Positions 1,378 through 39,510 are shown, counted from the first letter of the stretch. The stretch is DNA of 64,000 nt from a virus (IMGVR_UViG_2563366960_000002); one strand, 5' to 3'. The notes: generated by a model from the letters alone, not told the origin. Numbers and translations are program-made.

Positions 1378-1394
1378 AGATTTATTAGAGCAAT
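1378..1394 (-). promoter_or_regulatory. C1-repressor operator-like 17-mer
   Basis: Reverse complement ATTGCTCTAATAAATCT matches the P1 operator consensus ATTGCTCTAATAAATTT at 15 of 17 positions; lies upstream of the micro-ORF/ASCH genes. Confidence 0.55.
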
Positions 1395-1434
1395 TATTGC
1401 TGATGGAGAAGCGCGTTTTCATACTCCCTGACCA

Positions 1435-1899
1435 TTAACGTAAGTACGCCGTGTCTCCTGAAAACACGCGCACTTCAATCTTATCTTCCAGCGCGAACGC
1501 AATTTTACTCAGACCAATTTTCTTAAGGAGATCAATCTTTGCTGGGCCGTCATTTCTGTCATCGGTGGCAGGACGCATAGATAGCAAAGGCTCAGCCCCG
1601 TTTGTTACGTACTTCCGCAGCCAAGCTCGTGTTTTATCCCTTGCGATCTCACAGCGCCCGGTTACAAACCAGACCGTGTAAACGTTAAATAACTGGCGCA
1701 CCATATCAATAACTGGAGTGATGGGAGTATCGGTGTCACAGGCGAGATTAAACTCGTTCCAGTCCTTTGTTAATGCACCTTTACCTGGTAGCGGAAGCAA
1801 ATGCAGTCTGTCTTCCGTTGCCTCCGATATCGTCCCATCAATATCTACTATGACGATATACGGACGTTCCTGGTGTGCGTGTTTATTGAAAATACTCAA
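1435..1899 (-). CDS. HAD-superfamily phosphatase
   Basis: 154 aa; IVIVDIDGTIS (DxDGT motif I), VTGR (motif II), downstream Lys and acidic EDK motif. Confidence 0.55.
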   Translation of the reverse strand: MSIFNKHAHQERPYIVIVDIDGTISEATEDRLHLLPLPGKGALTKDWNEFNLACDTDTPITPVIDMVRQLFNVYTVWFVTGRCEIARDKTRAWLRKYVTNGAEPLLSMRPATDDRNDGPAKIDLLKKIGLSKIAFALEDKIEVRVFSGDTAYLR

Positions 1900-1971
1900 A
1901 TGCCCTCCTCATTGGACGAAAAAAATGCTGGTGGGCGCACTCCACCAGCATTAAAAGTGACACTGTAACTA

Positions 1972-3234
1972 TCAGCGAACGTAAATAGTGCCGCCGTTCT
2001 CTTTTTCCCATGCATCGCTACGTGCATAGCAAACATCGAGAAGTCTTCTTGCCGCTGTTTCCTCTAAACCCAATTCGACAACCAACTGCTCATGACGGCG
2101 GGTAACCACATCAAACAGGGTATGCAACCCTTTAGTTGCCAGATCATCAATGAATTCCGGTTCGAACGGCAGCTCTGCATCTGCCAACATAAGCTCTTGC
2201 GCCCACTCAACTCGACGGACCAATTCCGGGCGGCGGCTTTCCATCTCTTTACAGATCAATTCATGGAAGAACTCTACCCAACCTTCCGGCTGGAACTCGC
2301 GGAAAATTGCCAACGGCTGGAAGTTTGGCATCAACCATTCGTTGATTCGGATATCAATGGCATAGCCCATGTCGCAGCAGAACTGATAAGCAAAGTCCAG
2401 CTTAGAAACGATATAAGGACGCTCGTTATTGAACTCTTTAGGCGATGAGATCCCATAAGCCAGGAGGCGCGGGAAGAAGGAGATTTGCCCTAACGTCGGA
2501 TGAAGTTTGCTTGCAGGGAAACGGCGCTCAGTAATGCCATACATTTCCTTCTTGAGCGTCGCAAATTTGGCATTCTCATTAACCAGCGCGGTAACCTCTG
2601 CTTTTTTATTAGCAAATGCCACGCGCGCTTCGCTTGCATCTTTAATAGTTTTTTTGAGCTGTTGGTTAAGATCGGCGACCTGCTTACGCAGTTCCTGTCG
2701 CTCGCTTTTAGCTTTGTTATAGCGTTTCTCAAGGTTAAAAGGATCAAGTTTCATGATCTCTTTATATTGAGATTTTAGCGTTGAAATCTGTGAGTTCCGC
2801 AGTTCAACCATCGCGGTCATTTCATTGAGTTTTGTTTCCAGCTCAATGCTTATACGTTCGGCTTTATCAGCACGCTGGTTGGCATCATGCGTCGCATCGT
2901 CGATCGCGTCCTGTTGCTGGCGTTTCAAATGTTCAATTTGCAGCTGAAGCTCTTCAATTTCTTTACCCTTCAGACCGAGATCCAACTGCATATTTTCAGC
3001 TGCATCTACCAAGGAGTTATGGCTATCAGCTTCTGCGTTATAAACATCAATAAGCTGTGCGTGAAGCATCTCCGCTGACTGAACCGCATTATCAAAAAAA
3101 CGTGCTGTGAGGTCATCACAACTAACGCGGCGTTGCGCGGCTCGGATGTTCTGGATAATGGCCGGGATACCGGCATTCAGGACGTCAGGGATAGATACAT
3201 TTTCGATTGATTGGTTTTGTGCTGAAGTGCTCAT
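1972..3234 (-). CDS. coiled-coil protein of unknown function
   Basis: 420 aa; roughly 200-residue heptad-rich N-terminal half (EELQLQIEHLKRQQQD..., ERQELRKQVADLNQQLKK) followed by a globular C-terminal half; no motif I recognise. Confidence 0.5.
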   Translation of the reverse strand: MSTSAQNQSIENVSIPDVLNAGIPAIIQNIRAAQRRVSCDDLTARFFDNAVQSAEMLHAQLIDVYNAEADSHNSLVDAAENMQLDLGLKGKEIEELQLQIEHLKRQQQDAIDDATHDANQRADKAERISIELETKLNEMTAMVELRNSQISTLKSQYKEIMKLDPFNLEKRYNKAKSERQELRKQVADLNQQLKKTIKDASEARVAFANKKAEVTALVNENAKFATLKKEMYGITERRFPASKLHPTLGQISFFPRLLAYGISSPKEFNNERPYIVSKLDFAYQFCCDMGYAIDIRINEWLMPNFQPLAIFREFQPEGWVEFFHELICKEMESRRPELVRRVEWAQELMLADAELPFEPEFIDDLATKGLHTLFDVVTRRHEQLVVELGLEETAARRLLDVCYARSDAWEKENGGTIYVR

Positions 3235-3235
3235 T

Positions 3236-3454
3236 TCAAAGTTCCGTATTAGCTTGTGCTTCGGTCATTTTTCCTAAGTATGAAGGAGGAAGGACTACGC
3301 AATTTGTATCCAGTCCCTCACCTATGGCAGCCTGTAAAATTCTGGCTAAGGTGAGTCTCTTGTTGCGATACCTGGTGATGACATGCCTGATACCGCCGGT
3401 CGGCGTAACAAAGGCGATCAGCCAGTAGTGATATTTCCGTCGGAATGGCCACAT
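3236..3454 (-). CDS. small basic protein, first gene downstream of paired C1 operators
   Basis: 72-aa ORF; AAGGTG RBS 5 nt before the ATG; stop abuts the start of the coiled-coil gene. Confidence 0.35.
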   Translation of the reverse strand: MWPFRRKYHYWLIAFVTPTGGIRHVITRYRNKRLTLARILQAAIGEGLDTNCVVLPPSYLGKMTEAQANTEL

Positions 3455-3468
3455 AGTGCACCTTATAG

Positions 3469-3534
3469 ATTGCTCTAATAAAAAACGTGATGAGTGTACA
3501 TCACGTTTTAAAAATATGGAATTATTAGAGCAAT
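3469..3534. promoter_or_regulatory. pair of inverted C1-operator 17-mers flanking a 28-bp palindrome
   Basis: ATTGCTCTAATAAAAAA on the + strand (3469-3485) and ATTGCTCTAATAATTCC on the - strand (3518-3534); palindrome AAAACGTGATGAGTGTACATCACGTTTT between them. Confidence 0.6.
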
Positions 3535-37810: not shown

Positions 37811-37827
37811 AAATTTATTAGAGCAAA
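37811..37827 (-). promoter_or_regulatory. C1 operator (Op53-like) controlling kilA-repL
   Basis: Reverse complement TTGCTCTAATAAATTT, 16 of 16 aligned positions. Confidence 0.6.
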
Positions 37828-37904
37828 TTTTTCTGACTCGATCCAGATCGGGTTGGACGATCTGCTCAGAAACCTGCCAGTTTGCTGGCAGGTTTTTTCT
37901 TTTG

Positions 37905-38942
37905 TTAACCTATTGCTACTGGTTTTAACAAACCAGCATCAAGTAGCTTGCGAGTTAACCACTGCTGGCCTTTACCCGTTAATTGGGGCGTCAGCCGTAT
38001 CTGGTAGCCATTTTCATCATCCAGCACCACTTCTTTCACCGTGAAATACCCGGCGTTAATGTACTGCTGGCGCGGTACGTTTTTGCGCGCACCAAAAGCC
38101 ATGAGAATGCCGTTCTGGCGCAACCATGAGAAAAGGGCGTTTTGCTTAAGTCCAACGACCTTTGCAAAGTTCCCGATCAGGATTCCATTAGCCGCTGATA
38201 CCCGGTCGGCAAAATCGACTTTAGGGGTTGCGGCCACCAGCTGTTGTTCCAACTGCATTTTCTGTTCTGCCAACTCGGCAGCCAGGCGTAGAGCTTCTGG
38301 TAATGTTTGGGGGATCGATGGGGCAGGGGAGTTTGCCTGCTGCAATTCTTCCAGTTTGTCGATCAGCGAACGGCGGACCGCTTTTGACTCGCGCGCGGCG
38401 ACTCGCAGGGCTTGTTTGAAAGTCATGGTTATGACAAGCATTGATGTTTTGTTCATTTTTTCCACTACACTTTTTGTGTAGTGCTCACCATCAAGCTCAT
38501 CGAGTATTTTTTCGATGAATTTGTTGTTCCGAACCTCTGGTTCCCCACATAACTTACGCGCTTCATTGACCATCTTTAACAGTGTCAGGCTGTCGATTGT
38601 GTCTCCGGTGTTGGAGATAACATTCACTGCTGGTGATGGCGTAGCTGAAGCAACAGGTGCTGGTTTTTCAACATTCAAATTATTACCGGTCATTCTGCGC
38701 GCCTCCTTTCTCATTTCTGCTGCCACTGTTGCGTAACGTAGACGTCCTTGTTCAATCAAATAATCCCTGATCTCGGCTATCAGTAGCCTGTTGATCACAG
38801 CCTTATCTGTTCGGGTATAAAAACGTCTGGTTATCATGAAATAGTTGGCAATTGCGCCGGGGATCTCCCGTGTCGGCATACAGGTTGTATGCAAAGCGAT
38901 CGCTTCGGCTATTTCATTACGGGTGACGAGAGGTGTTTTCAT
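37905..38942 (-). CDS. ant1: antirepressor Ant (Ant1 form; in-frame internal start would give Ant2)
   Basis: 345 aa with C-terminal KilA-C/ANT domain; immediately downstream of the icd-like ORF. Confidence 0.6.
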   Translation of the reverse strand: MKTPLVTRNEIAEAIALHTTCMPTREIPGAIANYFMITRRFYTRTDKAVINRLLIAEIRDYLIEQGRLRYATVAAEMRKEARRMTGNNLNVEKPAPVASATPSPAVNVISNTGDTIDSLTLLKMVNEARKLCGEPEVRNNKFIEKILDELDGEHYTKSVVEKMNKTSMLVITMTFKQALRVAARESKAVRRSLIDKLEELQQANSPAPSIPQTLPEALRLAAELAEQKMQLEQQLVAATPKVDFADRVSAANGILIGNFAKVVGLKQNALFSWLRQNGILMAFGARKNVPRQQYINAGYFTVKEVVLDDENGYQIRLTPQLTGKGQQWLTRKLLDAGLLKPVAIG

Positions 38943-39160
38943 AAACCCCCCTGAACGTCGGCAGAGAAGGGGAGGCTCCAGTAACTAAGTGAATTGCGCG
39001 AGTCAGTTGAAAAACGGGCAGTAAAAATGCAGGGGCCATCAGGCAATTGAGAGCGTGCTTCGTCTTCTGTTGCTGCGATAACGAAGTGATAGTGACGTTT
39101 TTGGCAGGAGTAAAAGCGCCAGATAAATTCAGGATGAGTTTGGGTAGGGGTAGTAGCCAC
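38939..39160 (-). CDS. icd: Icd-like cell-division inhibitor
   Basis: 73-aa ORF (the size I recall for P1 Icd), GTG start with AGGAGG RBS, overlapping the ant start. Confidence 0.5.
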   Translation of the reverse strand: MATTPTQTHPEFIWRFYSCQKRHYHFVIAATEDEARSQLPDGPCIFTARFSTDSRNSLSYWSLPFSADVQGGL

Positions 39161-39342
39161 AATGGCAGCCTCCTTTTGCTAATTTAAGGAGCTACCGCGT
39201 GAGGTTCCAATCTCAATGGCGGTAGCACTGACTGGGTTGGAACTACCGGCGCAAAAGGGAACCGGCCTGCCTTTCGGCAGCCCAGCCAGCACTACCATTG
39301 ATCTCGGAGCTATGTGCTACGTATGGCTGTGCGATGGCATGA

Positions 39343-39420
39343 CACAAAAAAGACGCTTTTGGCGTCTGTGTCGCCTTTTGCATTATCCGGGGTTCCAATC
39401 CCGGCATCCGTTTTACTAAG
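39343..39420 (-). ncRNA. candidate c4-type antisense regulatory RNA with intrinsic terminator
   Basis: On the - strand: hairpin GCCGGGATTGGAACCCCGG, then GACGCCAAAAGCGTC followed by TTTTTT, between the Op51-like operator and icd; boundaries not resolved. Confidence 0.3.
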
Positions 39421-39493
39421 ATGCCTGTTTAGGATAAACCGAAAATGCATTAGCACGCAAGAAAGTTAATGTAGCATATGAAGCTAAAAAAAC

Positions 39494-39510
39494 AAAATAA
39501 TTAGAGCAAT
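39494..39510 (-). promoter_or_regulatory. C1 operator (Op51-like) at the immI promoter
   Basis: Reverse complement ATTGCTCTAATTATTTT. Confidence 0.55.

Follow-up and report, generated by a model that had tools for sequence, protein, structure and literature searches.

Eleven P1-type C1 operator sites in a 64-kb window of a mosaic P1-like phage-plasmid

The viral DNA stretch IMGVR_UViG_2563366960_000002 (64,000 nucleotides, referred to here as the window) carries eleven sites related to a single 17-bp motif, one of them truncated, and these very probably are binding sites for the C1 repressor of phage P1, located at the promoters of early operons. Its alignments identify the window as part of a P1-like plasmid prophage or phage-plasmid (genus Punavirus), and it covers about two thirds of such an element. 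The positions of the C1 operators in P1 were established by the late 1980s and are individually annotated in GenBank, and what is new here is only a set of small variant details in a mosaic relative. C1 binds 22 operators dispersed over the P1 genome with the asymmetric consensus ATTGCTCTAATAAATTT, its binding is strengthened by Lxc, and both Coi and Ant1/2 antagonise it (Zhang et al. 2021, PMC8546580). About half of the P1 operators (those of ssb, lpa, c1/coi, cre/ref and others) lie outside the window, and the sites within it therefore cannot define the whole early regulon, as a prior sequence-only reading of this DNA had proposed.

A search of both strands with the 17-mer ATTGCTCTAATAAATTT, permitting up to three mismatches, yields nine matches in the window; in 100 dinucleotide shuffles the expectation is 0.26 and nine is never attained. 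The matches are at 1378-1394 (minus strand, one mismatch), 3469-3485 (plus, three), 3518-3534 (minus, three), 7142-7158 (plus, two), 17809-17825 (plus, two), 17820-17836 (minus, none; the only perfect copy of the consensus), 21342-21358 (minus, one), 37811-37827 (minus, one) and 39494-39510 (minus, two). The same sites are recovered by each of two position-weight matrices, the first derived from the 18 operators that are annotated in P1 at 17-94.8 kb and the second from six operators outside the window only; there are 13 matches at a score of at least 12 against 2.7 expected. Both matrices add 6235-6251 (plus strand; TATGCACTAATTAATTT), which has four mismatches to the consensus and scores 18.7 bits. 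Ten of the 11 sites score at least 18.7, and the eleventh, a remnant at 36046-36062 (minus strand), scores below 10 and falls under the threshold. All 11 have the same base at positions 3, 5 and 7-11, which form a core around TGC.CTAAT. Nine of them lie wholly inside the ~10% of the window that is outside open reading frames (ORFs) of at least 100 residues, and the other two overlap gene ends. Neither matrix finds a further strong site in the 64-kb window, the late-gene half (40-64 kb) being empty; the next-best match (33437-33453, 13.2 bits) is no better than chance would give. Every site that the sequence-only reading had listed was found, with coordinates right to within one base. Its count of ten holds only if the overlapping partner at 17809-17825 is included, the tally being nine sites with up to three mismatches plus the remnant, but its map was incomplete in having missed 6235-6251.

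Each site is the positional orthologue of an annotated P1 C1 operator, in agreement with the earlier assignment of the motifs to C1. Local alignment of the whole window with P1 (AF234172, P1 mod749::IS5 c1.100) shows ~97-98% identity in reverse orientation, with window 505-64000 corresponding to P1 85182 down to 24377, and the P1 record has protein_bind features labelled 'phage repressor C1' at the orthologous positions. All 11 of the operators annotated within the covered interval (P1 24.4-85.7 kb) have a counterpart in the window, which has no extra ones, and eight of the 11 are base-for-base the same. The set is like the P1/P7 operators (Op51, 53, 55, 68, 72ab, 82, 83, 86ab and 88) in its asymmetric 17-bp consensus, in where the sites lie in the genome and overlap promoters, and in having a bivalent 28-bp unit at ban; it differs in one substitution in Op83, in three substitutions in the Op51-type site, which heads a different immI allele, and in an Op55 that is cut after base 11.

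The sites also coincide with promoter elements. Promoter hexamers were placed by mapping the P1 annotation into the window, a generic promoter scan being too strict for most P1 early promoters, and several of the mapped promoters are themselves only predictions in P1. Annotated hexamers overlapping the sites are retained for PpmgR, P1ban, Pdmt, PkilA, P2pmgT, P1pmgT, P1pmgL and a P2c4-like promoter, and three arrangements recur: the operator's own TTGCTC is the -35 (PpmgR, P1ban and P2pmgT), the -35 overlaps the 3' end of the operator (TTGTTT in Pdmt and the P2c4-like promoter, TTGATT in P1pmgT), or the operator covers the -10 (TCTAAT in PkilA). The first arrangement could be taken to mean that the shared 17-mer serves chiefly as a promoter module (a TTGCTC -35 and then an A+T-rich spacer) and not as a repressor site. 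This is hardly credible, as the motif lies over the -10 at PkilA, downstream of the start at Op86b and Oppp, and with only its 3' end in the -35 at Pdmt and P2c4; it occurs in both orientations relative to transcription, and its 17-bp consensus is that of the published C1 operator (PMC8546580; GenBank annotation). In P1, moreover, point mutations in operators have reportedly been found to abolish repression while sparing the promoter hexamers.

Several points nonetheless weigh against regarding the motifs as C1 operators at early promoters of this element. The c1 gene (P1 93.2-94.1 kb) is outside the window, and the cognate repressor is therefore only assumed. The sites named O26 and Oppp are oriented opposite to their downstream genes, and the promoters that they would control are only predicted in P1. 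The remnant, and perhaps Oppp, are low-scoring and may not bind C1. Finally, the window is ~97% identical to P1 overall, and most of the site identity would be expected from descent alone; site identity thus says little about selection, and the argument for selection rests on distant relatives. An exact-match scan of IMG/VR with the consensus recovered 120 loci, most of them close P1 relatives carrying the ban operator, and a dozen that align at 69-80% identity. In two loci of ~70% identity, L025 and L038, a spacer that cannot otherwise be aligned has kept the dmt operator ATTGTTCTAATAAATTA together with the neighbouring TTGTTTTTTA and the -10 TACCAT, and the ban operator is conserved in the same manner; in four others (L048, L005, L051 and L078) the c4 operator is conserved within an unalignable spacer. 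The -35 and -10 hexamers of the dmt, ban and c4 operators are kept too in the ~70%-identity loci, and we therefore argue that these sites are under selection. L025 and L038 have kept the operator consensus and sites ahead of the dmt and ban orthologues at ~70% nucleotide identity, but in place of an overlapping inverted pair their ban operator has two direct sites 27 bp apart, ATTGTTCTAATTGATTT and a perfect consensus (L038 9476-9519; L025 13804-13847), and L038 has an extra site ATTGCTCTAATTTATCG (10565-10581) directly upstream of the ban gene. The regulon thus appears to be kept in this lineage with a changed operator architecture.

A rival proposal is that passive descent from a P1 ancestor has left the motifs in place without a working regulon, as could be if the element were defective, with c1 lost or repressor specificity changed. 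The location of c1, the visible truncation of the site at 36046-36062 and an overall identity that keeps sites without selection are all in line with it. However, the lytic, replication and morphogenesis genes in the window are intact, in relatives that have these immI and ParA modules C1 is essentially the same and the immC operators are identical, and the operators stand out as footprints in the ~70%-identity relatives, so that passive inheritance seems very unlikely. The closest complete relative found, pEC13-3 (NZ_CP060930, IncY), is 98% identical over the shared part; its 'phage repressor protein C1' is identical to P1 C1.100 at 282 of 283 positions, and it carries Op99a, c, d and e unchanged. 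By orthology to P1, C1 would bind and repress at the sites of this particular element as well. C1 matches no Pfam family, and no solved-structure relative is detectable by sequence. Some relatives (pEC13-3, as locus L124, at 3935-5606; also L042 and L109) have a second icd-antirepressor (KilAC) module adjoining c1, and that of L124 has its own operator-like site TTTGCTCTAATGAATTG (5590-5606).

The ban operator (Obanab, Op72ab; 17809-17836) is unchanged from P1 68667-68694. It consists of Obanb (Op72b; 17809-17825, plus strand; ATTACACTAATAAATTT) and Obana (Op72a; 17820-17836, minus strand; perfect consensus), each the same as in P1 and lying in opposite orientation with an 11-bp offset and a 6-bp overlap, to give a 28-bp near-palindrome with the geometry of a bivalent operator, namely two opposed 17-bp sites at an 11-bp offset in a 28-bp unit. 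The sequence-only reading rightly had a perfect site within a palindrome here, although starting at 17819 rather than 17820. P1ban is wholly inside the unit (-35 TTGCTC, 17835-17830; -10 TAATAT, 17812-17807), which overlaps the stop codon of dmt and stands at the head of the tRNA-ban operon. Opposed sites, the 11-bp offset and a shared AAATTT centre are also features of P1 Op99ab (Oc1ab), the autoregulatory c1 operator, although Oc1ab itself is outside the window. The weak Oc1b half of that operator is resembled by a weak partner half-site opposite Oppp (6246-6262, minus strand; CTTAAAATAATAAATTA; 11-bp offset), with 28-mers matching at 22 of 28 positions (hand count). The bivalent Oppp unit would be 6235-6262; its half-site is good with a matrix including Oc1b but marginal without Oc1b (top 1-3% of comparable 11-mers), and Oppp is monovalent in the GenBank annotation.

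A second paired arrangement, OpmgRb (Op86b; 3469-3485, plus strand; ATTGCTCTAATAAAAAA; the same as P1 82201-82217) and OpmgRa (Op86a; 3518-3534, minus strand; ATTGCTCTAATAATTCC; the same as P1 82152-82168), is an inverted pair with 32 bp between the sites, and the 28-bp palindrome previously proposed to lie between them is confirmed at 3482-3509 (AAAACGTGATG-agtgta-CATCACGTTTT), with 11-bp arms and a 6-nt centre. The palindrome overlaps the last four bases of Op86b, and together with the two operators it makes up a 66-bp composite inverted repeat (3469-3534) that is unchanged in P1 and is predicted to fold into a single long hairpin (-30.5 kcal/mol, z = -8.7). Op86a contains the PpmgR -35 (TTGCTC, 3533-3528), the -10 being TAAAAC (3510-3505). 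Op86b precedes the pmgR start codon (3454) by 15 nt and is 3' of the PpmgR -10, a roadblock position; this architecture suggests that it would sit at about +13 to +29 of the PpmgR transcript.

It is possible, if somewhat doubtful, that this composite is mainly a bidirectional intrinsic terminator separating ppp-pmgQ from pmgR-pmgS, and that the operator arms merely lengthen the hairpin. The stem within 3482-3509 is 7 bp long (CGTGATG/CATCACG) and extendable to 11 bp, has a 6-nt loop, and on the minus strand runs into TTTTTT immediately past the pmgQ stop codon (Op86a begins 1 nt past it), on account of which it resembles a terminator of the ppp-pmgQ unit. T-runs are present on both strands, and the fold of the composite is in keeping with such a role. 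A consensus terminator scan does not list the hairpin, possibly because the extended stem uses up the T-run, although this is a guess. On the other side, each arm is a complete 17-mer that fits the consensus over its first 13-14 bases and is a C1 operator in the P1 annotation, and PpmgR would start inside the hairpin, so that its own transcript would be without the 5' arm. A terminator here is in any event compatible with the operator role that we favour for Op86a and Op86b.

The remaining sites in the left part of the window are single. OpmgT (Op88; 1378-1394, minus strand; ATTGCTCTAATAAATCT; the same as P1 84293-84309) is upstream of pmgT (459-1199, minus strand), with TTGCTC (1393-1388) as the -35 of the predicted P2pmgT and TTGATT (1378-1373) as that of P1pmgT. 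Between this operator and the pmgT start codon there is a hairpin (1323-1345) with a 10-bp stem of the ACATGCCGCG/CGCGGCATGT type, kept in P1 with one loop substitution; with a T-run confined to the plus strand, it would act as a terminator for transcripts antisense to pmgT and not for pmgT itself. Oppp (Op83; 6235-6251, plus strand), which differs from P1 79435-79451 (CATGCACTAATTAATTT) by one substitution (C to T at base 1), lies in the 33 nt that separate pmgM from pmgN and precedes pmgN-pmgO-pmgP-ppp-pmgQ. It is downstream of the predicted PpmgN, the -10 of which is CATGCT in the window as against TATGCT. An ASCH/phosphatase operon had been described in this region; Ppp is indeed a metallophosphatase by Pfam, but no ASCH domain is found by Pfam in pmgO, pmgP, ppp or pmgQ, pmgN being outside the scan. 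Pfam also identifies HrdC as RdgC-like and Pap as a PNKP-type phosphatase. O26 (Op82; 7142-7158, plus strand; ATTGCACTAATAATTTT; the same as P1 78528-78544) is between the divergent gene 26 (7231, plus strand) and pmgL (7084, minus strand), where it shares bases with the -35 of the predicted P1pmgL and lies directly next to the P2pmgL -10. Odmt (Op68; 21342-21358, minus strand; ATTGCTCTAATAAATAT; the same as P1 65145-65161) heads uhr-hrdC-dmt, and the Pdmt -35 (TTGTTT, 21342-21337) overlaps its 3' end, the -10 being TACCAT (21318-21313).

OrepL (Op53; 37811-37827, minus strand; TTTGCTCTAATAAATTT; the same as P1 49810-49826) covers the -10 of PkilA (TCTAAT, 37822-37817) and heads kilA (36941-37741) and repL (36066-36911), bearing out the prediction that this operon is preceded by an operator. 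The best promoter match of the region is on the plus strand at 37686-37714 (TCGACA-17-TATATT with an upstream TG) and is the orthologue of P1 PaskilA (P53as); ~180 nt downstream there is a hairpin (37868-37897) with a 13-bp stem and a T-run, and an antisense RNA from this promoter to this hairpin would therefore cross the OrepL operator. The core-only site reported at 36050, also said to precede kilA-repL, has a different context. It is a partial match, the actual site being 36046-36062 (Orlf, Op55; minus strand; ATTGCTCTAATCTGGAG; P1 51575-51591 is ATTGCTCTAATTATAAC), and it lies 3 bp past the repL stop codon as an Orlf orthologue cut by a mosaic junction. P1 homology ends inside the operator, and the consensus is matched only over its first 11 bases of 17, ATTGCTCTAAT (36052-36062); the remnant is probably non-functional and, judging from its matrix score of below 10, probably unbound. 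Downstream of it rlfA and rlfB are replaced by a gene for a ParA-like ATPase (34747-35802, minus strand) and its neighbours. The truncation is not an assembly artefact, because the same arrangement is present in complete plasmids such as NZ_CP077462 (97.6% identity over 9 kb). The replacing module (33374-36052), which is thus also found in complete E. coli plasmids, lacks pmgF, rlfB and rlfA and brings the AAA_31-family ParA-like ATPase, a DUF3892 protein (34305-34676, plus strand) and a 198-residue ORF without a Pfam match.

The rightmost site, of the Oc4 (Op51) type (39494-39510, minus strand; ATTGCTCTAATTATTTT), has three substitutions relative to P1 (AATGCTCTAATAAATTT) and heads a variant immI allele. 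The sequence-only reading placed it ahead of the immunity region, which is correct for immI (c4-icd-ant) but not for the c1 region. The operator is followed by a P51a-like promoter (-35 TTGTTT, 39495-39490; -10 TACATT, 39473-39468) and then by an isrK-like element (39346-39424, minus strand; Rfam RF01394, 58.5 bits), c4 antisense RNA (39215-39302; Rfam RF01695, 76.7 bits), icd and ant1. The operator is a conserved island, its flanks being ~50% identical to P1, yet TGCTCTAAT and the following TTTGT..TTTTTA are retained. Of the two promoters annotated there in P1, only the upstream one, P2c4 (P51a), is overlapped by Oc4; the other, P1c4 (P51b), begins 39 bp past the operator. The c4 RNA is made in P1 lysogens, where it holds ant off. 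Contrary to what had been predicted, the immI operon as a whole is therefore not silent in the lysogen, because c4 RNA must be present there to keep ant off. In the variant allele (39133-41712) P1 simABC is replaced by three plus-strand ORFs, including one for an SH3-domain protein (40548-41615), and homology to the immI alleles of JL22, RCS47 and D6 stops at the outer edge of the operator (39509/39510). This allele is common, being present in 458 plasmid records.

The genes in the window run from pmgT through ban, dmt, repA/par, head and tail genes, repL/kilA and immI to the tail-fibre region and ddrB. In a megablast search of the first 20 kb against phage records the matches are P1, P7, RCS47, SJ46 and other Punavirus, at ~97-98% identity and 87-94% query coverage; the best matches of the window are at 98% among plasmids and 97.6% among complete E. 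coli genomes, and IMG/VR locus L004 is 99.7% identical to it (10 kb compared). Segments replaced relative to P1 are 1-505, 15035-17072, 23153-24027, 25466-27843, 33374-36052 and 39133-41712, together with the invertible C segment. The ban operon differs from that of P1, in which there are three tRNAs (Asn, Thr and Ile) and tciABC, in having five tRNAs, all on the minus strand (Arg-TCT, 17074-17150; Tyr-GTA, 16982-17068; Thr-TGT, 16902-16977; Ser-TGA, 16362-16448; Met/Ile2-CAT, 14951-15026), and an SPFH/Band 7 gene (15054-15881, minus strand; Pfam E = 1e-30) in place of tciA, tciB and tciC between the tRNAs and ban. The Tyr tRNA is weak in Rfam (41.9 bits) and the Ser tRNA is not listed there, and P1 aligns with 15035-17072 in short pieces only. 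A 101-residue ORF without a Pfam match (12999-13304, minus strand) is located between ban and dbn in a ~290-bp segment without a P1 counterpart (alignment gap at 13002-13291).

Two of these junctions raise the question of whether C1 operators might double as preferred sites of module exchange among P1-like phage-plasmids, with the conserved cores acting as micro-homology between diverged modules: the rlfA/rlfB break follows base 11 of Op55 (36052), and the outer edge of the Op51-type operator marks the end of the variant immI allele. This seems improbable. Among 338 internal alignment ends from the 120 IMG/VR loci, a biased sample in that the loci were chosen for an intact Oban, a single one is near Oc4, and Oban and Odmt have none within 15 nt.

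How the sites would operate can be proposed from established P1 work. C1 would bind each asymmetric 17-bp site, the two sites at ban being overlapping and inverted, and since the sites are on or just 3' of sigma-70 -35/-10 hexamers, bound C1 would block initiation or early elongation. In the prophage state seven units would be off or low, namely pmgT and the following genes, pmgR-pmgS, pmgL-pmgM, pmgN through ppp and pmgQ, tRNA-ban, uhr-hrdC-dmt, and kilA-repL, and C1 would also shut the upstream, P51a-type immI promoter. The Lxc (Bof) corepressor would tighten binding at some sites, and inactivation of C1 by Coi or the Ant antirepressor would lead to expression of the units as an early lytic programme. 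In P1, ban, dmt, kilA and ssb are induced once the thermolabile C1.100 is inactivated, as measured by reverse transcription quantitative PCR (Ronayne et al. 2016, PMC4713147), and the C1 operators are marked on the expression map of a P1vir RNA-seq study (PMC8201110). The joint derepression put forward by the sequence-only reading accords with this induction of ban, dmt and kilA, but it passes over modulation by Lxc/Bof, Coi and Ant (PMC8546580).

As a reproduction of the known P1 C1 operator map in a new mosaic relative, these findings add little. Their value is for annotation, in that the sites mark early transcription units and identify the element as one carrying P1-type operators, and the map shows which members of the regulon have been swapped, these being the tRNA set, the SPFH gene, the ParA-like module and the immI allele.

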